Shown piece by piece: positions 44,199 to 61,273 of a stretch of DNA of 64,000 nucleotides. The position numbers were made by a program, and so were the translations under genes. The notes below the pieces were generated by a model, which saw only the letters and a program-made list of their open reading frames with translations, did no database searches and was not told the origin of the DNA. Position 1 is the stretch's first letter. The number at the start of each line of letters is the position of its first letter. The stretch lies in the NCBI GenBank assembly GCA_004321745.1, contig SGYO01000002.1:47959-111958 (forward strand), written 5' to 3'. Source of the DNA: a bacterium. Its GTDB lineage: Bacteria > Fidelibacterota > Marinisomatia > Marinisomatales > UBA1611.

Positions 44199-44218
44199 AA
44201 AGATTCAAAAATACAGAA

Positions 44219-44968: not shown

Positions 44969-47262
44969 AATATTTGTTTTTTTTTCAAAATTTCAGTTAA
45001 AGAAGCTAATAAAGTAAGTGTACCCATAGAAGTTGCAAACATTGCAAAAACCATTAATCCCCCGACAAATTGTACAGGTATGAAATTAGAAAAAATTAAC
45101 GCACCAAAAGACATATTTGAAGCTGAATCAAGTACTATTGGATAACCAACTTCATTGAATATTTCGGTTGAGTTTTTGTCTGATTTACCTTTAGAGCGAT
45201 TAGCTTTAAAATGATATATATAATGAATAGAAAAATCAACGCCCACCCCAATGATAACAGATGATAATAAAGCAGTAACGTGACTTAAATAAATTCCTGA
45301 AAACCCCATTAATCCGAAGTTAATTATTATTGCAGAAAGCAATGGGATAATTGAAAGTATACCCCATGCTATACTTTTAAAAAATAAAGAGGTAATAAAA
45401 CAGATACAGAACAAAGAAGCCACTAGACTTATAATAGAAGATTCTATAACTAAATAAATCAAATCTCTAATAACAACTCCCATTCCTGTAACAGACACAC
45501 TATCAATTATCTCTAAATCATTTACGTGACTATGAATGTGTTCTACAAACGAAATTATTTGGTCAGTGCTCATCATACTACTTAAAGCTGTAATTAGACT
45601 AATATTATAATTATAATCTACTACGGAGTCTAAATCATCGCCATCCCCAGACATTGAATACATGGCAAGTAGATTACTGATTTTATTTCCATTTTTTGGA
45701 ATGGTATTAAACTCAGGATTGTTATCCATTAAAGTAAAATGCATTTGCTTAACAGCATCAGCAATAGAATAAGTAGCATTTATAGATGGATTTTCTTTAA
45801 GTGCTTTTTGAAGCTGTTCAATTTCATATAATACGCCAGGATCTTTTACATCACCTTCAACCCGGACACGGAAATCCATAGTACCTGCCATCTGCTCATC
45901 AATGAAATCTATGCTTTTTCTAAATTCAGTTCCTTTTTTGAAAAAGTTGGCAATATTTACATCTACTTTTACAAACATTAACCCAGAAAAACCAAACAGA
46001 ATGATAATGAGTCCAGTTTTTAATATTTTTAGAGGATTAGGTATTATAACTACTCCAATATTTCTTATTGTTTTTTCAAGGATACTTTCTTTTGATATAG
46101 AAATTGACTCAAGATTCCATTTCTTAAATGATATAGCTGCTGGTAAAAAAGTAACACTAAGTATAAAAGCATATAAAATGCCTATACTTAAACATACACC
46201 ATATCCTAGTAACTGGTTTATTGGGGCAAAGTAGAGTGCTAGAAATGCAGCAATTGTAGTTATACTTGTTAAAAATATTGGCATTAATAACTTATCAATT
46301 GAGGCAGATATAGCCTGCCTAGTTACTTTTCCACTCCTCATTTCTTTAAAAAATCTTGTCACAAAATGAACTCCATCTGAATTAGCAATAGTGAGTAAAA
46401 TAATTGGCATGGAAGAGTTTATTATGGTGAAATAAAAATATTTAGATCCTGTATAATAGGTTATCCAACCCATAACGCCCGCCATCACTATAAGTGACTG
46501 AATTATTATAGAGAATATCAAAAAAACACTAAATATATTTCTAATATTTAGAACAAGTACTCCACACATTAGTCCTAAACCAATAATAATTAAGGTGGAA
46601 ATGTCTTTTTTGATCATTGTTGGCACAGACCCAGTTATATACGCTATGCCGCCATAATGAATATCATAATTTCTAGATAATAGACTATCGCCTACTTGCA
46701 CTACCCTATGCCTTAATATATCATGAGGTACATTGGGTGAAGGTTGAATTATGATATTAAAATAATCTTCATATTTACTAACCATTCTATTTTTAATCGC
46801 AGAGTTAGCATTTACATAATTTGCAATATCTTCAATTGTATGTTCACTTAATTCTCTATTTTTTTGAAGGTCCTCAATTTCAAGAAATCCGTCATTACTA
46901 AAAATTTTAGGAATGTTAGAAATGCTAGTAACTTTTTCAACTTCTTTAATCTTTTCTAACTTTCTAGTAACGTCCCATAATTGAGAAAGCGCTTCTTTAT
47001 TAAAAATATTTTCACCCTCATTACCAAAAGCAACAAAAATAGATTCTGTACTACCAAATTCATTTTGTACTGCATCCCAAGTCATTCTTGATTCCATTTT
47101 TGTTGGTAGCATTGCCATCATATTATCGTCTACTATTATAAAACGAAGACCAGAGCCAATGATAAACGTTAAAAAAATGGGGATAAAAATTGATTTCAGA
47201 GGATTATCTAGGACAATTTTTGAAATCCTAGATTCTTGATATTTACTACCCTCTGCTATCAC
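44965..47262 (-). CDS. MMPL/COG1033-type RND-superfamily exporter, copy 1
   Basis: 765 aa with a GTG start (GTGA overlap with the upstream gene). Two blocks of about 6 TM each follow a large soluble loop, the classic RND/SSD layout. Confidence 0.75.
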   Translation of the reverse strand: MIAEGSKYQESRISKIVLDNPLKSIFIPIFLTFIIGSGLRFIIVDDNMMAMLPTKMESRMTWDAVQNEFGSTESIFVAFGNEGENIFNKEALSQLWDVTRKLEKIKEVEKVTSISNIPKIFSNDGFLEIEDLQKNRELSEHTIEDIANYVNANSAIKNRMVSKYEDYFNIIIQPSPNVPHDILRHRVVQVGDSLLSRNYDIHYGGIAYITGSVPTMIKKDISTLIIIGLGLMCGVLVLNIRNIFSVFLIFSIIIQSLIVMAGVMGWITYYTGSKYFYFTIINSSMPIILLTIANSDGVHFVTRFFKEMRSGKVTRQAISASIDKLLMPIFLTSITTIAAFLALYFAPINQLLGYGVCLSIGILYAFILSVTFLPAAISFKKWNLESISISKESILEKTIRNIGVVIIPNPLKILKTGLIIILFGFSGLMFVKVDVNIANFFKKGTEFRKSIDFIDEQMAGTMDFRVRVEGDVKDPGVLYEIEQLQKALKENPSINATYSIADAVKQMHFTLMDNNPEFNTIPKNGNKISNLLAMYSMSGDGDDLDSVVDYNYNISLITALSSMMSTDQIISFVEHIHSHVNDLEIIDSVSVTGMGVVIRDLIYLVIESSIISLVASLFCICFITSLFFKSIAWGILSIIPLLSAIIINFGLMGFSGIYLSHVTALLSSVIIGVGVDFSIHYIYHFKANRSKGKSDKNSTEIFNEVGYPIVLDSASNMSFGALIFSNFIPVQFVGGLMVFAMFATSMGTLTLLASLTEILKKKQIL

Positions 47263-48734
47263 CGATTATAATTCATTATATTGTAAATGTAAGCCATAAT
47301 ATCTTGAAAATTAACTAATGAATCTTCGTTATAATCTGCTGGTGGTGATTGAGGATAAAACCCGTAATGCATGTCCAAAGCATAAAATAAATCAAATACA
47401 TCAATTTGGGAGTCAAAATTTATGTCCCCAACTGTATAATCTGGGAATGCTGTAGAGTCACCTCCAAAAAATTCAACAGAATACTTTTGTGCTCTTGCAA
47501 TCATAATATTTACACCTGGATATTCATAATCCCATAAAGTATTACCAGCAGAATCAATCTCAAATATCTTTGCATCATCAGCTACAGATATTAATGTGTT
47601 ACCATTTTGTAATCTAAAAGCTCCACTTTGAACATTTGAATGAAATCCTCCCGTGTACATCCACTCTATTTGATCTGGTCCGAAAGGGTCTGTATCATTA
47701 ATGACATAATTTATACTATCTGTATCAAGAGGTGGTACTATTTCAAAAATAGCTGAAGTTAAATTTCCGTAATTATTATTGTATAATATCAAATTACCTG
47801 CACCAGGATATCCCTCTTTGATCCAGTTGATACCATGCTGACTTTCAAGTCTCTGGGATGAATTAGACCCTCGATCATAAGCTGCAGGATTTCCCCAACG
47901 GTACAAGAAGTCGCCTCCTTTCCCAGAATTACCACCTGTGTGACCTGATGCTTCTTCTGTTGTTGTGCTATGATCAATTATATATATCTCATTTTGGTGC
48001 CTAGAGCTAATTACAATCTGATCAAGTAGCGGATTATAGTCAATCGCATTAATATGCATCCAATCAGCATTACTTCCACCAGGACCTCCTCCACCTCCCA
48101 CATCACCATAGTTAATATCCATTAACTCTGGATGCTCTGAAACAACGCCATACCCTGACAAACTCGGATCAGAATCTTGAATCAAATGATCCCATAGGTG
48201 CCACTCCCAAACAATATTAGCACCATTTGGAGGAACTATTTCAAGCTCTAAAATAGCCGTTGACCACATTTCACCTAAAGGATTATTGATAGAAACCCTA
48301 CCCATTGCATAGGCCTCCGTAGCAGATTTTCTTTCCCATACTATTACTAGAACGTTCCCATTGGGAAGTGGCTGGACATCATGATGATGTTGATATGTTT
48401 CGTTAGATATCACGTACTGCCAAATCAGCGTCCCATCCCAAGATATATGGGCAATGCCTCCTCCAACACCGCCAGCACTCATGGTAGGGTTTTCAACTCT
48501 ATATGGATATATAATAGAGCTATCCGCAAGAAGATAAGGCATACTAGCTGCACCTCTACTGTGCTCCCAAGTATGAATTACATCCATATTATTATTTAAT
48601 AGATAGCTTATGCCTCCGGTAGCACCATTAGGCCCGCCACCTGTTGGGGAAAACAATGTATAGCCATTAAATACTTCAGCACTTAAAAATGATAATGTGA
48701 TTATCAACTTTAATAAATACCTGAAGATCATCAT
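47259..48734 (-). CDS. Exported arylsulfotransferase (ASST)-like beta-propeller protein with C-terminal dockerin-like module
   Basis: Track ORF runs to TTG 48755. I prefer ATG 48734 (MMIFRYLLKLIITLSFLSAEV, a signal peptide). ASST-like motifs are YQHHHDVQPLPNGN and DWMHINAIDYN...ISSRHQNEIYIID. The tail GDINFDSQIDVFDL...DYNEDSLVNFQDI forms two dockerin-type Ca loops. Confidence 0.65.
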   Translation of the reverse strand: MMIFRYLLKLIITLSFLSAEVFNGYTLFSPTGGGPNGATGGISYLLNNNMDVIHTWEHSRGAASMPYLLADSSIIYPYRVENPTMSAGGVGGGIAHISWDGTLIWQYVISNETYQHHHDVQPLPNGNVLVIVWERKSATEAYAMGRVSINNPLGEMWSTAILELEIVPPNGANIVWEWHLWDHLIQDSDPSLSGYGVVSEHPELMDINYGDVGGGGGPGGSNADWMHINAIDYNPLLDQIVISSRHQNEIYIIDHSTTTEEASGHTGGNSGKGGDFLYRWGNPAAYDRGSNSSQRLESQHGINWIKEGYPGAGNLILYNNNYGNLTSAIFEIVPPLDTDSINYVINDTDPFGPDQIEWMYTGGFHSNVQSGAFRLQNGNTLISVADDAKIFEIDSAGNTLWDYEYPGVNIMIARAQKYSVEFFGGDSTAFPDYTVGDINFDSQIDVFDLFYALDMHYGFYPQSPPADYNEDSLVNFQDIMAYIYNIMNYNR

Positions 48735-48866: not shown

Positions 48867-48890
48867 TTTTCCTAAATCAACATTTCAAAG

Positions 48891-49967
48891 ATGAACAGAA
48901 GACTAAAAGCATATAAAATTATCAGTAAGACATTCGGAGTTTGGCTGTCTACCATTTTTACTGGTTTATTGCTCACTTTGATGAAATTTCTTGTTTCATT
49001 TTTTTTATTTATGGACAAAATATTTATTAATGTTCCAAACAATTCAATTTTTAAAAAGCCAATAATAATCGTTGGAAATCCAAGGTCTGGCACCACTTTT
49101 TTGCAAAGGTATTTGATCAATAATGGACTAGGTACTGGGTCTCAGCTGTGGCAATTGATTTATCCCTCTATTTTACTACAAAAAATAATAAAACCATTTT
49201 TACCTCTGTTAGAAAAAATAAGTCCTGCTAGACACCATTCAACTGAAGCACATAAAACAAGCCTGACTTCTGTTGAGACTGATGATGTTAGTCTTTTATT
49301 TAGGCATTTTGATGGTTTTTTTTTGTATGGGTTTATTTTTGCTTTTGACGAGGAAGATTTATTTGAATTTTTTGACCCAATGTTTCGAGACACAAACGTT
49401 AGAGATTTTGAATGGTTTGAAAACATTTGGAAAAACAACTCATATGAACATAACGCCCCATATATTGGAAAGCTATTCTCGCTAAGTGCTAAACTGCCTG
49501 CATTTCAAAAAAAATTTCCTGATTCTAAAGTACTGTATATGATTAGAGACCCAATAGATGTTATACCTTCAGGATTAAGCTTAGTTACTGGAGTTCTTGA
49601 CAAAAGGTTTGGCTTTTGGAACTTGGAAAAAAATATTCAATCTAGATATATAAAAAGACTTTACAATGCGCTTGTGACTTTATTAATTCGTTTTCATCAT
49701 GATTGGGTCAATGACAATATTGATAAATCAAAAGTTTTGATTATTAAGTATGATAAAATGATGTCCAATTTTGAAATAATAATGAATGATATTTTTTCAT
49801 TTCTAGATCACAATCCATCAAAAAAATTAATCAATGACATACAAAAGACTGCTGAAAAGCAAAAGATTTATAAGAGCAAGCACAAGTATGATCTTAAGAA
49901 ATTTGGACTCTCAGAGAAAAAAATTAAAAAAGATTGTCTTCCAATTTATGAGACATTTTTAACATAA
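48891..49967 (+). CDS. Membrane-anchored PAPS-dependent sulfotransferase family protein
   Basis: 358 aa with N-terminal TM segments. The 5'-PSB loop is VGNPRSGTTFLQRYL and the 3'-PB motif is MIRDPIDVIPS. Confidence 0.75.
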   Translation: MNRRLKAYKIISKTFGVWLSTIFTGLLLTLMKFLVSFFLFMDKIFINVPNNSIFKKPIIIVGNPRSGTTFLQRYLINNGLGTGSQLWQLIYPSILLQKIIKPFLPLLEKISPARHHSTEAHKTSLTSVETDDVSLLFRHFDGFFLYGFIFAFDEEDLFEFFDPMFRDTNVRDFEWFENIWKNNSYEHNAPYIGKLFSLSAKLPAFQKKFPDSKVLYMIRDPIDVIPSGLSLVTGVLDKRFGFWNLEKNIQSRYIKRLYNALVTLLIRFHHDWVNDNIDKSKVLIIKYDKMMSNFEIIMNDIFSFLDHNPSKKLINDIQKTAEKQKIYKSKHKYDLKKFGLSEKKIKKDCLPIYETFLT

Positions 49968-50578
49968 TGACCGTATATAGAGCAAAGTTTTTTATAATAA
50001 TATTTTTTCTATCAAACTTCATTATTTGTCAGAATGAAAAGTATATGAGTAATTATGAAAATCTTAATGAATGGGAAACAATTCAAGAAACCGATGTTAA
50101 TTTAAAATGGACTAACCAAAATGGTTTTCCTATTGTAAAAGCTACAGCAAAGATGCCATTTCCTATAGATTCAATTTCTAAAATAATCGAAGATGTTAAA
50201 AACTATCCTAATGTGTTTAGAAGAGTTCATGAAGTTCAAATTCTTGATAAAAACATCATCCATATAATGATTGATATGCCATTTTTACTTTCTGATCGCG
50301 ATTATGTAATTCAATATTCTAAAAATAAATCAAAAACCACATGGAAGTTCTCATTCAATGCTATAGATCATGGAAGTGCTCCTGCCACAGAAAAATATGT
50401 TAGATTAATAAATGCATTTGGTAAATGGGAATTAAGTCCAACAAATGAAAATGAAACATTGCTAGTTTATACATGGAATGGAGAACTTTTAGGAGATTTT
50501 CCTGAATTTGCTTTAAAAAGAGCATGGAAGACACAAGGGAATGAAATAATACACTGGATTAAAGATGAGCTTAAATAA
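49967..50578 (+). CDS. Exported START/SRPBCC-like lipid-binding protein
   Basis: 203 aa with a signal peptide. The START-like pattern includes W..i....v.l, PFLLSDRDYVIQY, GKWEL and GDFPEFALKRAW. It has a TAATG overlap with the sulfotransferase gene. Confidence 0.55.
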   Translation: MTVYRAKFFIIIFFLSNFIICQNEKYMSNYENLNEWETIQETDVNLKWTNQNGFPIVKATAKMPFPIDSISKIIEDVKNYPNVFRRVHEVQILDKNIIHIMIDMPFLLSDRDYVIQYSKNKSKTTWKFSFNAIDHGSAPATEKYVRLINAFGKWELSPTNENETLLVYTWNGELLGDFPEFALKRAWKTQGNEIIHWIKDELK

Positions 50579-52004
50579 AATAATAATGTTAATCCTTTTA
50601 TTAAGTATCGCACATAGTCAATCTAAAAATGCATTTAACGGTTTTCTAGATTTTAATTATATATCACGAATCTCAGATGGATCAATAATTAATCTACCCT
50701 ATAGATTATTTAGTTTAAGGATTGACCATGAAAATGAAGATATTTTGATAAAATCAAACTTGGTCATTGAACATAAAATAAGGGAAGAAACCCATTTTTT
50801 ATCTAATGAATCTCCATCAGATTTTAATCTTGATTTAAGAGAACTTTATTTGCAATTATTTACTTCATGGGGGGAATTAAAAATTGGAAAAATCATTCAT
50901 ACCTGGGGTAATGTCGATGAAAATAGTCCTGTTGATATTGTTAGTCCATATGACTACTATTTTACTTTTGATTCAGGAATTGATAAAAAAATGGGGATTT
51001 TCTCATCTGCTATAGATATTTATGCTATTAATTATAAGCTTGGGTTTACTTTTTCTCCCATTCACAATACTCATAGGACCCCTCTAGAAAAAGATGATTT
51101 TCCAATAAAACTGCCAACATATCCTTATGAAAATGAATTTATGAAAATTAGTGGGAGCCCTATAGAATATGGTTTTTATGGCTTGAAGACACTAAGCAAA
51201 GGAGATATCTCTATTCATTATTTTAATGGATATGATCGACTGTTTAATCTGTCAGGTGTGAATGTATATGCGAATGGCCCTGATAAAAGTTTTTCAATCA
51301 TAGATATAATATATAGTTACAGAAAAACAAAAATGCTTGGAGTAGGTACTAATCTTTTTGTCGGCAATGCAACATTTAGAGGAGATGCCGCATTTTTTAA
51401 CACATCAGATGTGAATGGCGAAGATAAATTTCTTGAGAGAAAAAGCTCTTATCTGCCAACAATATATGACTCATTACATTATTCTTACCCTTTAAAAGAG
51501 GAAGTAAATTATTTCCAAGCAACATTACAGTTTGACATCGAATTACCCTTTGATATTCAATTTACAGGTCAATTTTTTACTTATGATACCTTAGATTATA
51601 AATCTGACAGTCTACCCCTTGATGAGGACATATCCATTCCAAACTTAGAAATCACAGCTGATGAATTGAACCCAAAAAATATTTTTACACCAGGATATGG
51701 GTCATCGATTGGAATTTTAACAAAAAAAGCAGCAATTATATCACTCCAAAAAAGCTTTTTAAATGATCAACTGAATTTTAAACTATCATCGCTCTTAGAT
51801 ATTGATAATAAGAACTATCACAATTCTATACCAGGAATTATACTCTCCCTAGAAACATCATACAGATTAAATGACAACCTTATTATTGACATTGGTTATA
51901 CAAAAATAACAGGAGATAGTAATCATCCTCTAGGCGAGGATTATCGATTAAATATTATGGAAGATTTTTCACATTTCCGTACAAATTTAAAATATAACTT
52001 TTAG
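50565..52004 (+). CDS. Outer-membrane beta-barrel protein (DUF1302-like, tentative)
   Basis: 479 aa with a signal peptide. It shows alternating beta-strand patterning, LRELYLQLFTSWGELKIGKIIHTWGNVDE and a C-terminal ...NLKYNF aromatic terminus. Confidence 0.5.
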   Translation: MSLNKIIMLILLLSIAHSQSKNAFNGFLDFNYISRISDGSIINLPYRLFSLRIDHENEDILIKSNLVIEHKIREETHFLSNESPSDFNLDLRELYLQLFTSWGELKIGKIIHTWGNVDENSPVDIVSPYDYYFTFDSGIDKKMGIFSSAIDIYAINYKLGFTFSPIHNTHRTPLEKDDFPIKLPTYPYENEFMKISGSPIEYGFYGLKTLSKGDISIHYFNGYDRLFNLSGVNVYANGPDKSFSIIDIIYSYRKTKMLGVGTNLFVGNATFRGDAAFFNTSDVNGEDKFLERKSSYLPTIYDSLHYSYPLKEEVNYFQATLQFDIELPFDIQFTGQFFTYDTLDYKSDSLPLDEDISIPNLEITADELNPKNIFTPGYGSSIGILTKKAAIISLQKSFLNDQLNFKLSSLLDIDNKNYHNSIPGIILSLETSYRLNDNLIIDIGYTKITGDSNHPLGEDYRLNIMEDFSHFRTNLKYNF

Positions 52005-52017
52005 TGGATATTATGAA

Positions 52018-52980
52018 ATGAGTATTCAAATAATAGGATCTGGATTTTATTTACCCCCATACATTGAAAACTCAAAAACTACTGGTCGAATCATTCGTAA
52101 AAATGAAGATTGGATCATTTCAAAAACTGGAGTAAAAGAAAGAAGAATTTCAAAAATCGACGTTGATAAGATGGGTGCAATAGCTGCCGAAAAAGCTTTA
52201 AATGGTAATGGCTCTCCTGATTTAATTATCAATGCCTCAGGAGTACCAAAGCAAACAATACCTGATACATCCGTCTTTTTTCAAAAAGAGCTTGGTCTAA
52301 AATCGATCCCCTGTTTCAGTATTCATGGTACATGCTTATCATTTCTAATAGCATTAAACAATGCAAGATCACTAATTAACACAAACGTATATGAAAGAAT
52401 TTTGATTATCTCATCAGATCGAGGAAGTTTAGGTAGAAACCCCAAAGAACCTGAAAGTGCTGCACTATTAGGAGATGCTGCAGCAGCAATACTTGTTGAA
52501 AAAGGAAAATCAGATTCAAATAATTTTCATTACTGGAAAATGAATACGTGGTCTAATGATGCTGCATTGACTGAAGTTAGAGGTGGCGGTACATTCAAGC
52601 ATCCACTCGACCCGAACACAAAAATTGAAGATAATTTGTTTACGATGGATGGACCAGCAGTATATAAATCCGCGAGAAAAAAGGCCTATAGAATGGTTTT
52701 AGAAACATTTAAGAACACCAAATTCAATAAAGAAGATATCGATTGGCTAATTCCACATCAAGCTTCCCTTAAAGCAATAAATGCATATAGTGAATATGGA
52801 AATTTTGATATGAATAAAATTATAAATATAGTGCCGACAACTGGAAATTGCGTAGCCGCTTCAATGCCTTTAGCATTAGCTACAGCAATACATGATGGAA
52901 GAATTCAAAGAGGAGACCTGTTATACTTTATTGGCACTGGAGCAGGTCTATCAATGGCTTGCGCTTTACTAACCTACTAG
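52018..52980 (+). CDS. KAS III (FabH)-like condensing enzyme
   Basis: 320 aa. The N-terminus IIGSGFYLPP...DWIISKTGVKERRI is FabH-like. Triad positions are Cys (HGTCLSF), His (IPHQAS) and Asn (TGNCVAASMP). Confidence 0.75.
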   Translation: MSIQIIGSGFYLPPYIENSKTTGRIIRKNEDWIISKTGVKERRISKIDVDKMGAIAAEKALNGNGSPDLIINASGVPKQTIPDTSVFFQKELGLKSIPCFSIHGTCLSFLIALNNARSLINTNVYERILIISSDRGSLGRNPKEPESAALLGDAAAAILVEKGKSDSNNFHYWKMNTWSNDAALTEVRGGGTFKHPLDPNTKIEDNLFTMDGPAVYKSARKKAYRMVLETFKNTKFNKEDIDWLIPHQASLKAINAYSEYGNFDMNKIINIVPTTGNCVAASMPLALATAIHDGRIQRGDLLYFIGTGAGLSMACALLTY

Positions 52981-52982
52981 TA

Positions 52983-54050
52983 TTATTTTATTAAAATAAC
53001 TTTTTTTACAAATGTCTTTTTTGTGGTATTTATTTTCATTAAATAAATGCCGTTGCTGTAATCACCTGCATCCCAATTAAAAGTGTGTTCACCTGCATCT
53101 AATTTTTGGCCATTTAATATTTGAATCAAGCTACCTTTTAAATCATAAATTAAAATATCCACCATCCCCCTTTTTTTTAAATCTATTCTAATACTTGTTT
53201 TAGGATTAAATGGGTTAGGGTAAGGATTTTCGATTTTAATTTCATATGGAATGTTGCTATGATCATTGATATTTGCAAAATCACACTCTTGTGGAGAATC
53301 AATTTGAAAAGAATAATAAAATTGATCGAGACTAATATTAAAGTTCTCGCTATTGGAAATGCATTCTGGAATATTTTCGCATAAACTATTACCCCCAATA
53401 GCAAAAAAAGGGAACCATGCACTATCATCACTGCTCCAATCAATATTCATATCACACATGCACTCCGGCAGCGAAGACAAATTATTATTAAATAGCCATA
53501 GATACTGTAATTCTGCCAAGGAGCAAATTGAGATTGGTAATTGATTAATCTTATTATAGCCTAGATCTAGATATTTAAGGTTAGATAAACTATCTAAATT
53601 TTCAATTACACCCTCTAAAATATTATTTGATATATATAATGATCTGAGCTCTTTTAAATTTTCAAAACTTGATGGCAATGATGATATCCTATTCCATTCT
53701 AAGTATAAGCCGCTTAAACCTGTCCAGTTCCCAATCGACTCTGGTAAACTAAAAATTGTGTCATTAACACCAGAACTATTGCCATAATTTCCAGCTACTA
53801 AAATCTTTAATCGTCCATTGAACCATGATTGCGTTCCTATTCCAAAAGCGTTATCATAATCTAAATTATTAATACTAATTAAATCAGATAAGCCCTCTAA
53901 ATCATCATTGTAAAAACAACTATCACCCAGTAGGATATTAATATTATTTGAAAGGGTGTTATTATATGTAAACCCCTCTTCACACTGGCAAATCAAGTTT
54001 TCACATATGAGCGAGAATAGAACTAAAATGTATTGAAAAGACCTATTCAT
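52983..54050 (-). CDS. Leucine-rich-repeat surface protein with T9SS C-terminal sorting domain
   Basis: 355 aa with a signal peptide. LRRs include LSGLYLEWNRISSLPSSFENLKELRSLYISNN and LKYLDLGYNKINQLP. The tail is YPNPFNPKTSI...GIYLMKINT...KKVILIK. Confidence 0.75.
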   Translation of the reverse strand: MNRSFQYILVLFSLICENLICQCEEGFTYNNTLSNNINILLGDSCFYNDDLEGLSDLISINNLDYDNAFGIGTQSWFNGRLKILVAGNYGNSSGVNDTIFSLPESIGNWTGLSGLYLEWNRISSLPSSFENLKELRSLYISNNILEGVIENLDSLSNLKYLDLGYNKINQLPISICSLAELQYLWLFNNNLSSLPECMCDMNIDWSSDDSAWFPFFAIGGNSLCENIPECISNSENFNISLDQFYYSFQIDSPQECDFANINDHSNIPYEIKIENPYPNPFNPKTSIRIDLKKRGMVDILIYDLKGSLIQILNGQKLDAGEHTFNWDAGDYSNGIYLMKINTTKKTFVKKVILIK

Positions 54051-54051
54051 T

Positions 54052-56127
54052 TCATTTAATAAACATAATTTTCTTTATTTGATTGTTAAATGGTTTATTT
54101 AACTTCAAAAAATAAATACCAGAGGAAAAACCCGCGCCATCCCAATTAGAGTAAAAAGTCTCTGAAAGATCATTTAAAGGGATACTATGAATTATTTTAC
54201 CACTTATGTCGTATATATCAATTTTTAAACCAACTTCATAAATATCTTTGACACCAATTTTTATATTTGAGTTGAATGGGTTTGGAAATGGTTCTAATAA
54301 AGTTGCCTCAATAGATTTGTTTGGCAGTTCATGAGCTGTTGATAAAGAATTTAATTTTAGATCAAAACTATACGTTCTAGCTAGGGATACTTTTTTTGAA
54401 GGGATTATTAATAAATCAAAACTACTATTAATTGCAGAATTACTAGTTATACCATTAAAAGTAATAGTTCCCGCAGACCCTGGCTCTATTTCTATGGAAC
54501 CACTAAAATCTTCGAACCAATCTAATTGCTCTATAAACTGATAATTAAAGGTTTCAGTTATTGATCCCTCATTTTTTAATGTAAATGAAATTTCAGCATT
54601 TCCCAATGGGAGATTTACAGCTGGCTGAGACTCATAGCCTTCAACATTGTTTTCCGAAAGTTCATCAACTATTAGGCTAAATGCGATTGGATATAAACTA
54701 GGTATTCGGTTAGCACGGTAAACTGCGCAAATTGGCTCACATAAATTATAATTCCCTCTCCAAACCTCCTCACCAATGTTTGTAACCTCTAATGAAGTAC
54801 CATTTCCTCCAACTGTTGTAATTAAATAATTTCCATTATCAAGTTTTTGAGCATTCCCTGAAGCAAAACCAAAAAGTTCCTCAGGTAGAGAGTATTCCCA
54901 CACTATTTGAGCTTGATTATTATTTAAACTAATCTCCAATACTCTCGAAGTCGGATATTCAGTACCTAAAAAACTTTCACTTAAATTACCATTATCAAAT
55001 GTTACAATATTTCCATTATCTAGTATTTGAAGTCCATGCTGAAAACTAAATCCAATATCATTACCCATAGAAACATCCCCTGATGGCATATCTCTGCCCA
55101 TGTTCCAAATTATATCACCACTGGGATAAGATATTTTTGTTATTCTAGATAAATGTCTAGTTGATATATATAAAGCACTTTCTTGCTCAGAAAAAATTAA
55201 AGCATTGACATGCGTCCAATCGTATTTTTGAAAACCAGTAGATGAGGATAACCACGTACCTCCAAGTTCGTCAAAATCGTCCATTGAAAAATGATCAAAT
55301 ACGCTCCATGTCCAAACTATTTCTTTTGTATCTTTATCCCATTCTATTAATTTATCCCCTACCCAAGGAAATTCAACAGTAATTCCGTTAGCAGTAAATC
55401 CAAAGTCTTGATAATCACCGGTCCAAGGACCGATAGGAATCGGACCCAACTGAGATGTTTCAACTATGCCTATATAATTACCATTCGGAAGTTTAATTAG
55501 GTCATGATGGAGGAACTGATCATTTGGCTCCTCCCAAACAAAATTGGTGTTTAGACTAAATTCTATCCCAGGAAGATTGTGTTCTAATGAATTGTCAGAA
55601 TAACATCCTAAAAGATCTAGGGCATCATTTGTATTATAATAAACAATGTTATTTTCGCCTGTGTTCCAAATTTCTCTACCATTAAAGTCGATCATAGCAC
55701 TATAGTAGTTATAAAATGAACTAAAAATAGTAATACCATGGTTTATATTATTTTCATCATAAATAATTGCAGTCGCATTCGAACGTTTTGAACCAGTTGA
55801 GAAGCTGAATGAATCGATCCAATCACTAAAGAACGGAGAATCATAGTTCGGACGCACTCTCCAATAATAATTTGAATCCCAATCTATACTTTCTTCTTCT
55901 ATAAAGACTAACGAGGTGACAGTAGCAACTTTGATGATTTCATCAAACTGAGAATCATAAGCTATCTCTACATTATAACTACTTGCTCCGGGTACTTGAT
56001 CCCATTCAAAAAGAACATGAATATAGTTAAGCTCGCTGTTGTTAGGAGGATTAATTAAGCCCGCAGTTAATGTCGTAAAAAATAAAGTATGAATGAAAAA
56101 AAGATAAAAAGTGCAATACCTAATCAT
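54052..56127 (-). CDS. Exported ASST-like beta-propeller protein with T9SS C-terminal sorting domain
   Basis: I prefer ATG 56127 (MIRYCTFYLFF...), 4 nt after the sat/cysC stop; the track start is 56151. ASST-like motifs are FLHHDLIKLPNGN and DWTHVNALIF...ISTRHLSRITKI. The tail is FPNPFNSNIKI...GIYFLKLN...KKIMFIK. Confidence 0.65.
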   Translation of the reverse strand: MIRYCTFYLFFIHTLFFTTLTAGLINPPNNSELNYIHVLFEWDQVPGASSYNVEIAYDSQFDEIIKVATVTSLVFIEEESIDWDSNYYWRVRPNYDSPFFSDWIDSFSFSTGSKRSNATAIIYDENNINHGITIFSSFYNYYSAMIDFNGREIWNTGENNIVYYNTNDALDLLGCYSDNSLEHNLPGIEFSLNTNFVWEEPNDQFLHHDLIKLPNGNYIGIVETSQLGPIPIGPWTGDYQDFGFTANGITVEFPWVGDKLIEWDKDTKEIVWTWSVFDHFSMDDFDELGGTWLSSSTGFQKYDWTHVNALIFSEQESALYISTRHLSRITKISYPSGDIIWNMGRDMPSGDVSMGNDIGFSFQHGLQILDNGNIVTFDNGNLSESFLGTEYPTSRVLEISLNNNQAQIVWEYSLPEELFGFASGNAQKLDNGNYLITTVGGNGTSLEVTNIGEEVWRGNYNLCEPICAVYRANRIPSLYPIAFSLIVDELSENNVEGYESQPAVNLPLGNAEISFTLKNEGSITETFNYQFIEQLDWFEDFSGSIEIEPGSAGTITFNGITSNSAINSSFDLLIIPSKKVSLARTYSFDLKLNSLSTAHELPNKSIEATLLEPFPNPFNSNIKIGVKDIYEVGLKIDIYDISGKIIHSIPLNDLSETFYSNWDGAGFSSGIYFLKLNKPFNNQIKKIMFIK

Positions 56128-56131
56128 CAAT

Positions 56132-57787
56132 TCATTCAGAAATAAAACCACGTTCTTCTATATAGTTATAAATTTTTTCTACAAGTTTTTCAGGCTCAAC
56201 TCCACTAGAATCAATTTTCAACTCAGCTTTTATTGGGTCTTCATAAGGGTCAGAAATTCCAGTAAACTCTTTTAATTTCCCTTCCCTAGCTAACTTGTAT
56301 AAACCTTTTACATCTCTTTCTTCACATTTTTCTAACGAAGTTGCAACATGTACCTCAATGTATCCACCCAGTTTAGAAATCAATTTCCTATTATAATTTC
56401 TATCGCTTTCATATGGAGCAATTGGAGCGCAAATAGCAATACCTCCATTTTTTGTTATCTCACTGGCAACATAACCTATACGTTTAACATTTATAGATCT
56501 ATGTTCCTTTGAAAATCCTAATTCGCTTGATAAATGTGTTCTAATGATATCGCCATCTAATAAAGTAACAGGCCTACTACCTTTTTCAAGAAGCTTTACT
56601 AAAAGCCCATTGGCTAAAGTAGATTTACCAGAGCCAGACAAACCCGTAAAGAAGACTGTAAATCCTCTTTTTGAGACTGGAGGACGAGATTTTTGGAGTT
56701 CATTTGCGACCTCACTATAGGTAAACCAACTTGGTATATCTTTGCCTTTATCAAGCAAATCTCTCAGCTCTGTACCAGAAACAGTTTTATAATTAGTATC
56801 CTTCGCAATTTCATCAATTGGGATATAACGATTCTCATCAGGTAAATATACTAAAAATTTAAAGGGAACCATTTTTATACCAATTTCTTGCTCATACTGA
56901 CTAAGTATTTCTTGAGCGGCATAAGGGCCATAAAATGGTTTGCCGTTGCTATCAAGCCCAGGGCCAGCATGATCTCTACCAACAATGAAATGAGAACATC
57001 CATAATTTTTTCTAACAATGGCATGCCATAGAGCTTCTCGAGGGCCTGCCATGCGCATAGCTAGGGGAATTAAACTTAAAAAAGCTTTATCATTTGGGTA
57101 TTTGCTTAAAACGTGCTTGTAACATCTTACTCTAGTATAATGATCAACATCTCCAGGTTTAGTCATCCCTACTACAGGATGAATTAAAAGGTTTGCATCT
57201 AACTCATCAATCGCCCTAAGCGTCATCTCAACATGAGCTTTGTGTAGAGGATTACGTGTTTGAAAAGCTACAATATTTGACCATCCCAATTCTTTGAATT
57301 TTTTCTTTAGCGATTTAGGGTCATGACGAATTTCTTTATAATCATAATGATTTGGTTTGCTTACGGCTCTTATTTTGCCTCCAACATAAATTGGATTGCT
57401 TTGATTCAATAGGTAATCTACCCCTGGATGAGTATTATCAGTGGTCCCATAAACTAACATACATTCTTTTTTTAGATCAGGGCCCCAAATATCTTCAATA
57501 TCAATTATAGCAATCGAGAAACCTTCCCTATCTTTCAAAGTTAATTTATCACCAGGATTTATTTTTCTTGAAAACTCCTTATTGACATCTAAGTTAATCG
57601 GAATCGGCCAAAGGCTACCATTTTTTAGGCGCATACTTAATAATACACTTTCGTAATCATCTTTATTGAGAAAACAATTTAAAGGCGCAAAACCTCCATT
57701 AAGAATCATCTCTAAATCACATATCTGACGCTCATTCAGCACCCAGGATTTATAATTCAATGATTCATTTTTTAATTCAATATTCAC
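56132..57787 (-). CDS. sat: Bifunctional sulfate adenylyltransferase / adenylylsulfate kinase (PAPS synthase, Sat-CysC fusion)
   Basis: 551 aa with a GTG start. The ATP sulfurylase part has QTRNPLHKAH and VGRDHAG motifs. The C-terminal APS kinase part has the P-loop FTGLSGSGKSTLA. Confidence 0.9.
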   Translation of the reverse strand: MNIELKNESLNYKSWVLNERQICDLEMILNGGFAPLNCFLNKDDYESVLLSMRLKNGSLWPIPINLDVNKEFSRKINPGDKLTLKDREGFSIAIIDIEDIWGPDLKKECMLVYGTTDNTHPGVDYLLNQSNPIYVGGKIRAVSKPNHYDYKEIRHDPKSLKKKFKELGWSNIVAFQTRNPLHKAHVEMTLRAIDELDANLLIHPVVGMTKPGDVDHYTRVRCYKHVLSKYPNDKAFLSLIPLAMRMAGPREALWHAIVRKNYGCSHFIVGRDHAGPGLDSNGKPFYGPYAAQEILSQYEQEIGIKMVPFKFLVYLPDENRYIPIDEIAKDTNYKTVSGTELRDLLDKGKDIPSWFTYSEVANELQKSRPPVSKRGFTVFFTGLSGSGKSTLANGLLVKLLEKGSRPVTLLDGDIIRTHLSSELGFSKEHRSINVKRIGYVASEITKNGGIAICAPIAPYESDRNYNRKLISKLGGYIEVHVATSLEKCEERDVKGLYKLAREGKLKEFTGISDPYEDPIKAELKIDSSGVEPEKLVEKIYNYIEERGFISE

Positions 57788-57804
57788 TAGATACCTTTTA
57801 CTTA

Positions 57805-58584
57805 CTATTGAGCAGCTATTAAAAATGATTCCGAAAAAACAGCATCATCTAAATCAACATCTGGTTTAAAAGCTTGAACGTTCATAATGGTATAATTCCC
57901 ATTTGGTCTTTTCATCTCTAATAATTTAGGAATCCAATATTTTCCACTTTTTACAATATCTTTAAAAAATAATGTTTTCTCTAATATTAAATTTTCTGAA
58001 AAGTATTCTACTTTGCGAACACGAAATATTTTTGTATCTACAAATATTTTTTTACTTTTATAACTACTATCTTTTACTGGTGTAGATAAAATTATTGCAC
58101 AACTATTCCCATTAATTATTTCTTGACCCTCATATTGGAAAATATCATCATTAATGTTTCTGTTTTCTAGATCCTCATATATGAAATCAGTGGACATAAA
58201 TGATTTTGATTTTTCTTTGGATTTTACTTTTTTTGCCATTTTTAATTTTGGAAGAAAAAACCATTGATCGGAGGATCCATCTTCTTTCGTCCAACTTAGC
58301 AAACCCGTACCTTTCACAGATTTTGGTTCTAAAAATTTGACCAAGGACTTTTGAAAATATTCATTATTCTTATAACGTTTTTCATATCTAATGAAAGCTC
58401 TAGATTTTCTTTTTTCCTTATTAGCTCTTTTTCGAACTATTTCTAGTTTTACTTCCGAAATTGAAGTTGCAGGATTAGGTTGACTAATAACCTTTTCCAT
58501 GATCTTTTTTGCTTTAAAATCATCATCATTTGCGATCAAAAAACTAAAAAGGATTAGAAGATAAAATGATTTATGGGCCATCAT
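57805..58584 (-). CDS. Outer-membrane lipoprotein-sorting (LolA-like) protein, copy 2
   Basis: 259 aa with a signal peptide. WFFLPKLKMAKKVKSKEKSKSFMSTDFIYEDL is the same signature as copy 1. Confidence 0.65.
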   Translation of the reverse strand: MMAHKSFYLLILFSFLIANDDDFKAKKIMEKVISQPNPATSISEVKLEIVRKRANKEKRKSRAFIRYEKRYKNNEYFQKSLVKFLEPKSVKGTGLLSWTKEDGSSDQWFFLPKLKMAKKVKSKEKSKSFMSTDFIYEDLENRNINDDIFQYEGQEIINGNSCAIILSTPVKDSSYKSKKIFVDTKIFRVRKVEYFSENLILEKTLFFKDIVKSGKYWIPKLLEMKRPNGNYTIMNVQAFKPDVDLDDAVFSESFLIAAQ

Positions 58585-58891
58585 TTTTTTCTTCTTTAAT
58601 AAAGAGTAAACCTATCGGTGTAAAAATCAAACTAATTAAAGCCACCACAAGATAATCTTGACGCTGTTTAAACTCTGATATTCCAGCTAATTGTAAACAT
58701 GAAAAGACATATATTATCAAAATAAGATCTGTGTTACTTCTCCCCCATAAAACTAGGGTTCTTAGATTAAAATCTTTAATGCTAGCAGAACCATCTATAT
58801 CCACATAATAATTATAGATCCATAATATTAATAATATTAAAGTTACACACAACATTATTAAACTGACTAGTTTATCATTTGAGTTTTTCAT
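58571..58891 (-). CDS. Small 3-TM membrane protein, hypothetical (MMPL accessory?)
   Basis: 106 aa. It starts immediately after the MMPL stop and overlaps the LolA-like gene by 14 nt. It has no counterpart in the copy-1 module. Confidence 0.4.
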   Translation of the reverse strand: MKNSNDKLVSLIMLCVTLILLILWIYNYYVDIDGSASIKDFNLRTLVLWGRSNTDLILIIYVFSCLQLAGISEFKQRQDYLVVALISLIFTPIGLLFIKEEKNDGP

Positions 58892-61186
58892 TTATTTATA
58901 TAAAAATTTTGGTTTAACTAAGCTAACAAGCGCTGGGAGGATGGCCATCCCACCAATCAAACAGAACCCAATTGATGCCATAATTAATATACTGAACTCT
59001 TTTAAAGGCATGAATACAGAAAACATTAAAACTGAAAAGCCAACGATTACAGAAATGCCATTAAATAATATTCCTTTCCCTGATACTTTCATTGTATTAG
59101 AAATTGCATCATCCAAATTGTCCCCTTCCCTTAGATGTTCTCGGAGATGCCAAAGAAAATGTACAGAATAGTCTATACCAACACCAACTAAAATGCATGT
59201 TAGCAGAGATGTAGTCATATTAAGTGGAATACTAAAATTACCCAATAAGCCAAAAATAAGTATTACAGCCAGCAGCATTGGAAGGCTTGCTAGTACCCCA
59301 CCAATTAATGATCTAAATACTAACGCCATAATACTAAATAAAATTATTGAAGCTATTCCTAAGCTAATGATTTGACCTCTTATTACAGAATGACTTACTG
59401 CACCCAATAATGCTGCCGGGCCCGACAGCATTGGATTAATAGGCTGGCCGTCATAATAGTTTGATTTTATATAATCCTCAGTATCGTCTACTAGGGCCAT
59501 TAGATCTACGGTACTAACTTTTTTTATTCGAACGAATCCCTGAGAATAATTTGGGTCGTCAGTATCATTTAATATTAGATCAAAATCATTATCCTCTCCC
59601 GCAATAGAATATAAAAACATATATTGTTCAATAAGCTCTCGGCTTGAAGGTATCTTTAAGGAATCAGGGTTACCATTATGAAAGGAATAATGCATTTTTT
59701 TTACAACATCTGCAATAGAGTATGTCGAACTAACGATGCTATTTTTTTCTTTTATGTGAGACATCAATTTGTCGATATGCTCTAATGATAAGGGATCATA
59801 AATATCACCCTCAATTAATATATTAAGTTGAGTTGAGCCTCCAAAAACTTCACTAATTACTGCGCTTGATTTTCTAATTTTTGAATCTTTGGGAAAGTAG
59901 TTGTCTGGAACAGTATCAATTGTTATATCTCTTATGCCAAAAGAAAAAATAAACATTATCGAGAATAAAACAGCTAAAAAAGGCACTCTATTCTTGACAA
60001 AAAACTTCCCCCAATTGATTAAAAAATTATTTACTGTTTCTAAGCTTTTTTCTTTTCCTAGGTATGTTGGCCTTGGAACTAAAATAAGAATCGCAGGTAT
60101 TAGAAGAAGACTCAAGAAGAACGAAACTGCAATACCAAAGGATACTAATAATCCAATTTCTCTAACCTTAGAAAGCTCATGAGTAACTAAGCTTAGGAAA
60201 CTAATTACAGTAGTAAATCCAGCGAGGAAAATAGGCATTCCCAACCTTTTCATAGTTCTCTTTAAAATTTCGACTCTATCTAAGTTTAAATCTAATTTGG
60301 TAAACTCATAATAATGAGATATGATATGAATACCATAATTATTTGCAATTGCAATAAGCATAATTGGAATTAAACCGCCTATAATTGGAACGGATATGTC
60401 CAACCAAGCCATTAATCCAAACGTCCATAAAATGGAAAACCCAACTACAAACAAGGGCAAAAAAGTTCCAGTCCAACTTCTAAAGCTTAAAATTAATAGA
60501 AGTATCATTAAACCTAATGCTATAGGTGTAAATGTTCTCATATCTCTTTTTACACTGTCAATAGACTCTGCAGCAGAAATAATTGAACTAGCGATATAAA
60601 TATCTTCAATTCCTTTAAAACTGTCAATGATTTGAAATAAGTTTTCTCTAAATGCTATTTCATCAAAATCAGTAGGGGCGGTAATTTGTGCAATAAAACA
60701 CATAATATTTAGTTCAGCGGATATAAGACTACCGATAATTTCACTAGCCTGAATTTTCTCAATGAAAGCAGATGTCTCCAATGAATCTTCAGGTATTTTG
60801 TTAAGTATTTTTTGTATTTCAAAGCCACCATCATCTGGAACAATATATTTTTGACTATAAATAGAAGCGACCCTGCTTACGGAAGGAATGTTTACTAAAG
60901 AATCATGTAAAGATGAATATTTACCCAAGATTTGCTCTGAAATTAAATTTTCAGATTCTACTGCAATTACCACAATCTCATTACTGCTAAAAAGGTCTTC
61001 AGCAAGCTCCATATTCTTTACAATTTTATGATCTTTAGGTACCAAAGATCTCAGACCTGGATCGATTTTCAACTCATTTATCTTCCACATAAAAAAAATG
61101 GTTAATAGCAATGTAAATGATATTATCGAACGCGGATAATGAGCATCTAACAAAAATAATCGTTTTATTATATTCTTGAGATTCAT
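58892..61186 (-). CDS. MMPL/COG1033-type RND-superfamily exporter, copy 2
   Basis: 764 aa with the same 2 x (soluble loop + ~6 TM) layout as copy 1 and nearly identical length. Confidence 0.75.
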   Translation of the reverse strand: MNLKNIIKRLFLLDAHYPRSIISFTLLLTIFFMWKINELKIDPGLRSLVPKDHKIVKNMELAEDLFSSNEIVVIAVESENLISEQILGKYSSLHDSLVNIPSVSRVASIYSQKYIVPDDGGFEIQKILNKIPEDSLETSAFIEKIQASEIIGSLISAELNIMCFIAQITAPTDFDEIAFRENLFQIIDSFKGIEDIYIASSIISAAESIDSVKRDMRTFTPIALGLMILLLILSFRSWTGTFLPLFVVGFSILWTFGLMAWLDISVPIIGGLIPIMLIAIANNYGIHIISHYYEFTKLDLNLDRVEILKRTMKRLGMPIFLAGFTTVISFLSLVTHELSKVREIGLLVSFGIAVSFFLSLLLIPAILILVPRPTYLGKEKSLETVNNFLINWGKFFVKNRVPFLAVLFSIMFIFSFGIRDITIDTVPDNYFPKDSKIRKSSAVISEVFGGSTQLNILIEGDIYDPLSLEHIDKLMSHIKEKNSIVSSTYSIADVVKKMHYSFHNGNPDSLKIPSSRELIEQYMFLYSIAGEDNDFDLILNDTDDPNYSQGFVRIKKVSTVDLMALVDDTEDYIKSNYYDGQPINPMLSGPAALLGAVSHSVIRGQIISLGIASIILFSIMALVFRSLIGGVLASLPMLLAVILIFGLLGNFSIPLNMTTSLLTCILVGVGIDYSVHFLWHLREHLREGDNLDDAISNTMKVSGKGILFNGISVIVGFSVLMFSVFMPLKEFSILIMASIGFCLIGGMAILPALVSLVKPKFLYK

Positions 61187-61273
61187 AATGTTTTAAAGAA
61201 AGGGAATTTACATAGTAATATTTTTATATGTTAAGAACTACAATATCTAATTTTTTTATTAGTAATATCTCAA

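Follow-up and report, generated by a model that had tools for sequence, protein, structure and literature searches.

The window analysed here, a stretch of 64,000 nucleotides from a bacterium of the Marinisomatales (contig SGYO01000002.1, positions 47,959 to 111,958), carries a 13-gene, 17-kb cluster (window positions 44219-61186) that encodes two proteins of the arylsulfate sulfotransferase (ASST) type. A preliminary description of the window had flagged three neighbouring genes, for a 3′-phosphoadenosine 5′-phosphosulfate (PAPS) synthase, an ASST-like propeller and a leucine-rich repeat (LRR) protein; these genes correspond to one arm of the larger cluster. The members of the cluster, with their products as predicted from sequence, are the following:

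MMPL1, 58892..61186, minus strand: resistance-nodulation-division (RND) transporter of the HAE3/MMPL type, 764 amino acids (aa), opening the minus-strand run
Small membrane protein, 58571..58891, minus strand: 106 aa, between MMPL1 and LolA1
LolA1, 57805..58584, minus strand: exported LolA-like lipid carrier, 259 aa
Sat-CysC, 56132..57787, minus strand: bifunctional ATP sulfurylase/adenosine 5′-phosphosulfate (APS) kinase, i.e., a PAPS synthase, 551 aa, cytoplasmic
ASST1, 54052..56127, minus strand: signal peptide, β-sandwich, ASST-type β-propeller, second β-sandwich and type IX secretion system (T9SS) type A C-terminal domain
LRR protein, 52983..54050, minus strand: 355 aa, with signal peptide, Cys-rich N-terminus, leucine-rich repeats and T9SS type A C-terminal domain
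KAS3, 52018..52980, plus strand: ketosynthase of the β-ketoacyl-ACP synthase III (KAS III) type, of the MxnB/CorB kind, 320 aa
OMP479, 50565..52004, plus strand: outer-membrane β-barrel, 479 aa, with signal peptide and C-terminal ...KYNF β-signal
START203, 49967..50578, plus strand: exported START-domain lipid-transfer protein, 203 aa
ST358, 48891..49967, plus strand: PAPS-dependent-type sulfotransferase with N-terminal hydrophobic membrane anchor, 358 aa
ASST2, 47259..48734, minus strand: 491 aa from ATG (498 from a TTG at 48755), with signal peptide, ASST-type propeller and C-terminal dockerin
MMPL2, 44965..47262, minus strand: second RND/MMPL transporter, 765 aa
LolA2, 44219..44968, minus strand: second exported LolA-like/DUF1329-like carrier, 249 aa

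These genes are arranged in three runs. Six co-directional genes on the minus strand (MMPL1, the small membrane protein gene, LolA1, Sat-CysC, ASST1 and, at the 3′ end, the LRR gene) face a plus-strand run of four genes (ST358, START203, OMP479 and KAS3), which converges on the 3′ end of the ASST1-LRR run, and the third run, consisting of ASST2, MMPL2 and LolA2, is divergent from ST358. Two start codons can be proposed for ASST1, an ATG at 56127 (691 aa), chosen by the majority of gene callers on identical contigs, or a GTG at 56151 (699 aa). With the ATG start, the open reading frame (ORF) coordinates agree with the order and gaps first described, i.e., 4 nt between the Sat-CysC stop and ASST1 and 1 nt between ASST1 and the LRR gene. 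The segment then delimited (52983-56151) covers the ASST-like and LRR genes, and Sat-CysC (56132-57787) falls just beyond it. The ORFs of ASST2 and MMPL2 overlap by 4 nt. Co-transcription of Sat-CysC, ASST1 and the LRR gene is suggested by gene spacing; scans for promoters and terminators over positions 44000-61500 gave counts no higher than in shuffled sequence and are uninformative on operon structure, and no RNA family was detected with Rfam over positions 44000-61600 (E ≤ 0.1). The convergent stop codons of KAS3 (plus strand) and the LRR gene (minus strand) are separated by 2 nt (52980-52983) with no terminator-like site there, and transcripts from the two convergent operons may overlap at their 3′ ends. 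We found no CysQ-like gene, no other ASST and no second KAS III elsewhere in the window.

A scan of one genome per species led to the collection of 75 Marinimicrobia loci (designated below by L numbers), in which all 13 proteins were mapped by tblastn; presence was counted in the 60 loci that have 8 kb or more of sequence to one side. Wherever the source is named, homologues of ASST1 come from Candidatus Marinimicrobia (Neomarinimicrobiota), an uncultured marine phylum also known as SAR406, and identical copies of the locus are present on marine metagenome contigs. The cluster core is kept in about 70 Marinimicrobia species, with OMP479 detected in 55 of the 60 loci, START203 in 54, ST358 in 53, ASST2 in 47, KAS3 in 42 and MMPL1 in 26. 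The conserved core thus comprises ASST1, the LRR protein, ST358, START203, OMP479 and ASST2, usually with KAS3, and the trio initially taken as the unit of interest missed the sulfotransferase, the ketosynthase, the START protein and the barrel that belong to it. MMPL2 lies directly 3′ of ASST2 in 31 of 42 loci, and orthologues of the small membrane protein were found in 32 loci, every time between MMPL1 and LolA1. In L008 and L009, the genes for ST358, START203, OMP479, KAS3, ASST1 and the LRR protein are all on one strand. In L007, a 1.2-Mb contig from a polished long-read assembly, ST358 (8316-9399), START203 (9403-10004) and KAS3 (14578-15544) each appear as two ORFs, which probably reflects frameshift errors and not pseudogenes.

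Pfam searches detected Arylsulfotrans (2.3e-22) and Arylsulfotran_2 (3.1e-20) domains in ASST1 and an Arylsulfotrans domain (1.4e-19) in ASST2, bearing out the second ASST-like paralogue reported at 47259-48755. The nearest solved relative of ASST1 is Cpz4 (PDB 9kf4 and 9kf6), the Streptomyces ASST of caprazamycin biosynthesis, which was retrieved with the single sequence (1.5e-14) and with a profile of 18 orthologues (8e-18). Cpz4 is also the top Foldseek match (9kf4/9kf6; E 7.6e-18, TM 0.62 on target) of the AlphaFold model of ASST1, which has a mean predicted local distance difference test score (pLDDT) of 76. Sequence similarity between ASST1 and the Escherichia coli AssT (3ELQ) is marginal (E 0.004-0.02). 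Both window proteins are thus predicted to contain a catalytic β-propeller domain of the ASST fold.

In the E. coli enzyme (EcAST), His436 is sulfated, and the site is formed by His252, His356, Asn358, Arg374 and Thr501 (2026 review PMC13426309). In the profile of 18 orthologues, the stretch W304-T-H306-V-N308...R324 of ASST1 aligns to W354-A-H356-V-N358...R374 of EcAST, and Q363-H364 aligns to Q435-H436. Residues H306, N308, R324 and H364 are invariant in this alignment, and a conservation check on 71 sequences agrees. The W-M-H-I-N...R stretch of ASST2 aligns to the same region of EcAST, and its QH307 aligns to the QH of ASST1. Compared pairwise, the two paralogues share 23% identity, with HHD, WxHxN, R and QH aligned, and these positions are invariant in 49 ASST2 sequences. 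The invariant HHD (207-209 in ASST1, 124-126 in ASST2) precedes WxHxN by about 100 residues, like His252 of EcAST, this motif being aligned between the paralogues and not to EcAST; no equivalent of Thr501 was identified in the ASST1 and ASST2 comparisons. The catalytic and sulfate-binding residues are kept down to about 40% identity (71 ASST1 and 49 ASST2 sequences). Alignment of the paralogues with each other and with characterised ASSTs therefore shows that the alignable catalytic residues are conserved in both families and that the predicted sulfo-histidine site is intact in both proteins. ASST1 and ASST2 resemble E. coli AssT (3ELQ) in being exported β-sandwich plus β-propeller proteins with conserved equivalents of His436, His356, Asn358 and Arg374; unlike them, the E. 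coli enzyme has no known link to PAPS enzymes and lacks both an LRR partner and an anchor of the T9SS or dockerin kind.

The window proteins had been introduced as PAPS-independent enzymes that shuttle sulfate between phenolic compounds. This is indeed known for classical ASSTs (PMC12297285, PMC13426309), but the restriction to phenols is too narrow, as Cpz4-type enzymes can sulfate sugar hydroxyls too. Cpz4 prefers a sugar hydroxyl as acceptor (PMC13426309), so the acceptor of ASST1 and ASST2 need not be a phenol. Additional copies occur in some species: L024 (9560-12135) encodes a tandem second ASST1-LRR pair, with 26% and 52% identity to the window proteins, and L015 encodes an additional ASST1-like paralogue at about position 13216.

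The two ASSTs carry different predicted anchoring devices, as first proposed. The C-termini of ASST1 and of the LRR protein match Por_Secre_tail (38.1 and 45.5 bits, respectively; cut-off 27) and TIGR04183 (44.0 and 40.4 bits; cut-off 23), and they contain the motifs FPNPFN...IK and YPNPFNP...IK, in agreement with the sorting domains originally described. Both proteins have hydrophobic N-termini, and the sorting domain is retained in 59 of 70 orthologues of each. With a signal peptide and a sorting domain above threshold, ASST1 and the LRR protein are both predicted T9SS type A cargo. According to a 2017 review, T9SS is confined to Bacteroidetes (PMC5445135); Marinimicrobia homologues are named 'T9SS type A sorting domain-containing protein' by NCBI. 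The tail of ASST2 instead contains two putative dockerin Ca-loops. The window copy is sub-threshold for Dockerin_1 (PF00404; 14.8 bits, cut-off 22.9), and Dockerin_1 matches the tails of 22 of 22 ASST2 orthologues (best 2.8e-11), with both loops conserved.

The LRR protein, in which Pfam detects LRR_14, LRR_4 and LRR_8 repeats, is the most constant companion of ASST1. Among 73 species-level loci, its gene lies 3′ of ASST1 in every one of the 67 whose sequence extends 1.5 kb or more past ASST1, and in most of them the two genes are separated by -4 to +2 nt. Moreover, six species (L065, L067, L069, L070, L071 and L083) encode both proteins as one continuous ORF of 959-968 aa. These fusions end in a dockerin and not in a T9SS domain (in L067, Dockerin_1 is exactly at the gathering score). 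Taken together, the natural fusions, an adjacency without exception and start codons that overlap or abut the preceding stop codons are strong evidence that ASST1 and the LRR protein cooperate physically, which supports the earlier suggestion of the LRR protein as a partner. In the fusion of L067 (9992-12871), the linker between propeller and LRR (residues ~590-700) is rich in repeated C-G-V-C-x-G-D-x-S-T-C motifs, and free-standing LRR proteins have a conserved Cys-rich N-terminus at the matching position.

Other putative T9SS cargo is encoded nearby. Some species have additional T9SS-sorted genes between the LRR gene and OMP479 (L049 13131-18375, L077 13134-16618), encoding a laccase-like multicopper oxidase that carries a Laminin_G_3 domain and points to phenol chemistry, a β-helix protein and a β-lactamase-family protein. 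In the window, a protein with a T9SS-type C-terminal domain just under the Pfam cut-off is encoded at 1720-2562 (minus strand), near a 1269-aa protein with FG-GAP/UnbV_ASPIC repeats (3988-7797, minus strand).

The PAPS synthase contains PUA_2, ATP-sulfurylase (5.8e-84) and APS_kinase (1e-56) domains. It scores 867.1 bits (cut-off 669) against the bifunctional-enzyme family NF004040, 441 bits (323) against TIGR00339 and 181 bits (139) against TIGR00455. Both PAPS-synthase domains are thus present in one chain that exceeds the equivalog cut-off, and Sat-CysC is predicted with confidence to be a bifunctional PAPS synthase. Its position beside an ASST-like gene is real in the window; it is not the conserved feature of the cluster, being restricted to certain lineages (12 of 59 loci). 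Two different arrangements were observed. In the clade of the window (L011-L015, L080), the order is MMPL1, small membrane protein, LolA1, Sat-CysC, ASST1 and LRR. In the second (L065, L067, L069-L071, L083), Sat-CysC is followed by a 256-aa CysQ-like gene of the Inositol_P family (1.7e-48), the family of CysQ-type 3′-phosphoadenosine 5′-phosphate (PAP) phosphatases, and then by the ASST1-LRR fusion. We read this as the placement of a PAPS synthase gene inside the ASST1 operon in the lineage of the window and, in a second lineage, together with a CysQ-like PAP phosphatase. The sulfotransferase ST358, of the PAPS-dependent type, co-occurs with ASST1 and ASST2 in 53 of the 60 loci. The two Sat-CysC arrangements and the near-universal ST358 make a stronger case for a link between the cluster and PAPS chemistry than the adjacency in the window alone. 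Horizontal acquisition of Sat-CysC finds no support in GC content, as the gene (0.348) differs little from the mean of the window (0.334) and does not stand out from the genes around it in the cluster (0.277-0.376). About 13 kb from the cluster (29752-31164, minus strand), a gene encodes a 470-aa Na+/sulfate symporter of the DASS family (Na_sulph_symp 2.1e-50), which could supply sulfate; members of this family carry dicarboxylates too.

ST358 matches Sulfotransfer_3 (1.1e-16) and Sulfotransfer_1 (3.8e-10), and its PAPS-binding motifs, the 5′-phosphosulfate-binding (5′-PSB) loop GNPRSGTT and the 3′-phosphate-binding (3′-PB) motif RDPxDxxxS, are conserved in 63 sequences. Against PDB, it gave marginal matches only, to 2z6v and 2zq5, which we take to be mycobacterial Stf-type enzymes.

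The ketosynthase KAS3 is most similar to MxnB (4v2p, 3.7e-49) and CorB (4yuc, 2.2e-48) when searched against PDB as a single sequence, the best FabH scoring 2.3e-40. With a profile of 23 sequences, MxnB and CorB reach 255.8 and 253.6 bits versus 206.8 for the best FabH, i.e., about 49 bits apart. The Cys-His-Asn triad is invariant, and KAS3 has the insertion 'RGGGT.KHP.DP.T...DNLFTMDG' common to MxnB and CorB (4V2P, 4YUC; PMC5724707), which is gapped in the only FabH alignment displayed (2ebd). We consider a housekeeping FabH a less probable reading of KAS3 and rejected it as the best one, since KAS3 falls under the FabH cut-offs of NCBIfam (TIGR00747, 195 bits versus 292; NF005541, 263 versus 402) and fits MxnB/CorB about 49 bits better. 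With its intact triad and its greater closeness to MxnB and CorB than to FabH, KAS3 is a predicted ketosynthase of the MxnB/CorB type. MxnB and CorB produce a 4-hydroxy-α-pyrone from two acyl chains, which they connect head-to-head (PMC5724707, PMC4578411), and by analogy the product of KAS3 would be a dialkyl-hydroxypyrone, a lipid with an enolic hydroxyl comparable to the pyrones made by Cpz6.

Other genes of acyl metabolism are found in the vicinity of the cluster. In L030 (20348-21358), and also in L023 and L052, a FabH-like KAS III with 24-25% identity to KAS3 is encoded between MMPL2 and LolA2, and two of the species concerned do not have KAS3 in the cluster. In the window, a 3-hydroxyacyl-CoA dehydrogenase gene lies beside LolA2 (42930-44198, plus strand), and relatives have FadB-like and thiolase genes (L007 155-3634). 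Such β-oxidation genes flank LolA2 in at least 10 species; they could be a source of 3-ketoacyl thioesters for KAS3, or the synteny may be incidental.

Several proteins of the cluster are candidates for lipid export. MMPL1 matches MMPL (2.8e-44) and Sterol-sensing (1.2e-10) in Pfam, and TIGR00921 (HAE3) at 3.5e-78, under the cut-off of that family; MMPL2 (MMPL 5.6e-25) shares 27% identity with it. Both carriers match LolA_like (PF17131), LolA1 at 2.4e-45 and LolA2 at 3.8e-43, and LolA2 has in addition a weak match to DUF1329 (4.5e-5, 23.4 bits versus a cut-off of 23.1). The 106-aa membrane protein gave no significant Pfam match. START203 has a weak match to Polyketide_cyc, and the profile of its orthologues retrieved from PDB a bacterial STAR-related lipid transfer protein (3qsz, 6.8e-8) and a phosphatidylcholine (PC)-transfer protein (0.009). 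The profile of OMP479 orthologues had no sequence match in PDB. The AlphaFold2 model of OMP479 is all-β (pLDDT 84.9, predicted TM-score 0.83), and its top Foldseek matches are the 18-stranded alginate exporter AlgE and porins (2.6e-10). DUF1302 (PF06980) was not detected in OMP479 of the window and matches 4 of 25 orthologues weakly (best 8e-4). Signal peptides were recognised by inspection in ASST1, ASST2, the LRR protein, START203, OMP479 and LolA1, the N-terminus of LolA2 being less clear.

The combination of enzymes described above recalls caprazamycin biosynthesis. There, according to the summary of Tang et al. (2013) given in PMC4257720, the PAPS-dependent Cpz8 sulfates triketide pyrones, which the PAPS-independent ASST Cpz4 then uses as its donors. 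In both systems, a PAPS-dependent sulfotransferase is encoded in one locus with ASST-type enzymes and with a relative of hydroxypyrone-forming enzymes, and among solved structures Cpz4 itself comes nearest to ASST1 in both sequence and fold. The systems differ in that the pyrones are made by a type III polyketide synthase (PKS), Cpz6, in Streptomyces, whereas the cluster contains no type III PKS; KAS3, of the MxnB/CorB-like KAS III type, matches Chal_sti_synt_N at only 1.8e-4, under the cut-off. By analogy, KAS3 would be a functional counterpart of the type III PKS from a different family. Furthermore, the Cpz steps all take place within a Streptomyces secondary-metabolite pathway, whereas the ASSTs studied here are exported, with a T9SS domain or a dockerin. 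The Marinimicrobia cluster adds lipid carriers, RND pumps, an outer-membrane barrel and an obligate LRR partner. It does not contain antibiotic biosynthesis genes, and it is distributed phylum-wide instead of being one biosynthetic cluster.

These comparisons suggest that the cluster may be an exported variant of the two-step sulfation of the caprazamycin type, a reading that we prefer to the others and consider evenly poised between right and wrong. In such a pathway, Sat-CysC, which has the domains of a PAPS synthase, would produce PAPS in the cytoplasm. KAS3, judging from its nearest characterised relatives, would condense two acyl thioesters into a lipophilic 4-hydroxy-α-pyrone or a similar enol or phenol lipid. 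ST358, anchored at the inner membrane, would then use PAPS to sulfate the hydroxyl of this product, as Cpz8 does. The resulting amphiphilic sulfate ester would be passed outward across the envelope by proteins assigned by fold or family, with pumps of the RND/MMPL type, carriers of the LolA-like and START types and the AlgE/DUF1302-like barrel as the candidates. Outside the cytoplasm, ASST1 and ASST2 would transfer the sulfuryl group of the carrier to an acceptor. ASST2 would be held by its dockerin, and ASST1 would stand at the surface, paired with or fused to the LRR protein, whose LRR module would probably recruit or position the acceptor.

The preliminary description had postulated, from the co-occurrence of a PAPS synthase and an exported ASST, an intermediate sulfated carrier that crosses the envelope. 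The Cpz8/Cpz4 precedent corresponds to precisely such a carrier, and ST358, the MxnB/CorB-like KAS3, the lipid-export parts and the status of Cpz4 as the nearest solved ASST all lend support to it from context and make it much more plausible. More specifically, and as a possibility that we think less likely than not, we propose an extracytoplasmic sulfation relay, in which a hydroxypyrone or enol sulfate, charged by PAPS at the inner membrane, would be exported as a substitute for PAPS and used by ASST-LRR complexes anchored at the surface to sulfate acceptors of the cell surface or the environment, for example glycans, tyrosines or phenolic organic matter.

Several observations count against an exported two-step pathway. 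Sat-CysC is not in the cluster in 47 of 59 loci, so the PAPS supply would usually be encoded elsewhere. In 18 of the 60 loci (about 30% of species), the cluster lacks KAS3. MxnB and CorB join two PKS-bound chains in large PKS clusters, unlike KAS3, near which nothing comparable is present: no acyl carrier protein, CoA ligase, PKS or adenylation gene was found in the cluster or its flanks. The substrates of KAS3 would have to come from fatty acid metabolism, as for PpyS (PMC4578411). Basic residues flank the anchor of ST358 on both sides, and the cytoplasmic location of its catalytic domain is an assumption. Nine species have no RND or LolA genes beside the cluster, indicating that these parts are not obligatory. 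Finally, the T9SS machinery (PorK/L/M/N, SprA, PorU/V) was not found among the scanned ORFs of the window, several smaller ORFs of which were left unscanned.

The best surviving alternative is that the sulfated lipid is itself the end product. In this case, KAS3 and ST358 would make a sulfolipid that is put into the outer membrane by the RND pumps, the LolA-like and START proteins and the barrel, and the ASSTs would only trim, exchange or remodel the lipid sulfate, or act on other phenolics. Such a function is in line with the dominance of lipid-handling parts in the cluster (two MMPL, two LolA-like, one START protein and one barrel) and with the sole weak matches of ST358 among solved structures, the presumed Stf-type enzymes 2z6v and 2zq5. 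The mycobacterial sulfolipid-1 pathway, with the Stf0 sulfotransferase and MmpL8, likewise combines a PAPS-dependent sulfotransferase with a lipid exporter of the MMPL family; it differs from the Marinimicrobia cluster by having no known ASST, T9SS cargo, LRR protein, START protein or barrel, and it belongs to another phylum with another envelope. A similar layout of DUF1302 barrel, DUF1329 protein, RND pump and propeller is known in Pseudomonas, where export of a cell-wall component has been proposed (bioRxiv 10.1101/2020.07.04.188060). However, a sulfolipid end product leaves unexplained why two catalytically intact ASSTs and the LRR partner are the most tightly conserved elements, and why the nearest characterised ASST consumes a PAPS-derived carrier. 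We consider this explanation possible and rather unlikely.

The Pseudomonas module also inspires a second alternative, in which the propellers would be structural or binding subunits of a DUF1302/DUF1329/RND-type exporter and would transfer no sulfate. In Pseudomonas, the genes for DUF1302 and DUF1329 proteins are co-fit with those for an RND pump and a BNR propeller (bioRxiv 10.1101/2020.07.04.188060), whose place the ASST-type propellers would take. The four-part architecture is indeed parallel, with a barrel (weakly DUF1302), a LolA-like/DUF1329-like carrier, an RND pump and a propeller protein, and the linkage of ASST2 to MMPL2, by their 4-nt ORF overlap and their adjacency in 31 of 42 loci, also speaks for it. 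Nevertheless, the propellers of the cluster are of the ASST and not of the BNR type, and the cluster goes beyond the module by its sulfation enzymes, START protein and LRR protein. The invariance of the catalytic and sulfate-binding residues in the 71 ASST1 and 49 ASST2 sequences argues against a structural role, as do the export of ASST1 by a different route, its coupling to the LRR protein rather than to the pump, and the retention of both ASSTs in the nine species with no adjacent RND gene. We regard a structural role as improbable.

Finally, it is equally improbable that the ASSTs at the surface collect sulfate from phenolic sulfates of the environment or exchange it between them, with Sat-CysC serving ordinary sulfur assimilation and adjacent by chance. 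The PAPS-free transfer between phenols by classical ASSTs (PMC12297285, PMC13426309) and the absence of Sat-CysC from most versions of the cluster speak for it. Against it, Sat-CysC stands beside ASST1 in two arrangements, once with a CysQ-like PAP phosphatase, a PAPS-dependent sulfotransferase is near-universal in the cluster, and the presence of an APS-kinase domain suggests that Sat-CysC makes PAPS.

Elsewhere in the window, genes for the turnover of peptidoglycan peptides are concentrated between positions 8562 and 22118. They encode an S13 D-Ala-D-Ala carboxypeptidase, two S66 LD-carboxypeptidases, an AmiA-like amidase, an M55 D-aminopeptidase and a β-lactamase-family protein.

For most bacterial ASSTs, the natural sulfuryl acceptor and the physiological role have not been identified (PMC13426309). 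Our literature searches (Marinimicrobia with sulfotransferase or type IX secretion; ASST with T9SS) retrieved nothing relevant, and the sole pathway that we found in the literature to supply an ASST from a PAPS-charged carrier is that of the Streptomyces antibiotic cluster. The logic underlying the exported two-step pathway is therefore already known, from one antibiotic pathway. What appears to be new is the export and anchoring of the ASSTs, the association with an LRR protein, up to outright fusion, the use of a KAS III where caprazamycin biosynthesis has a type III PKS, the presence of parts for lipid export and the conservation throughout a phylum.

The locus suggests that this two-step logic is in constitutive use by a whole phylum and has been relocated to the cell surface. 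If this is true, Marinimicrobia, which are prevalent in low-oxygen marine waters (PMC8359478), would have a general, phylum-wide means of sulfating molecules beyond the reach of PAPS, and the cluster would provide candidate genes for donor synthesis, PAPS charging, envelope export and surface transfer. It would also offer a concrete candidate function for non-cellulosomal dockerins, for T9SS-sorted LRR proteins and for modules of the DUF1302/DUF1329-type, in which a barrel, a LolA-like protein, an RND pump and a propeller are associated. At the scale of the environment, organosulfates would be formed in the deep ocean by a route not recognised before, and sulfated marine organic matter may have one of its biological sources in this cluster.

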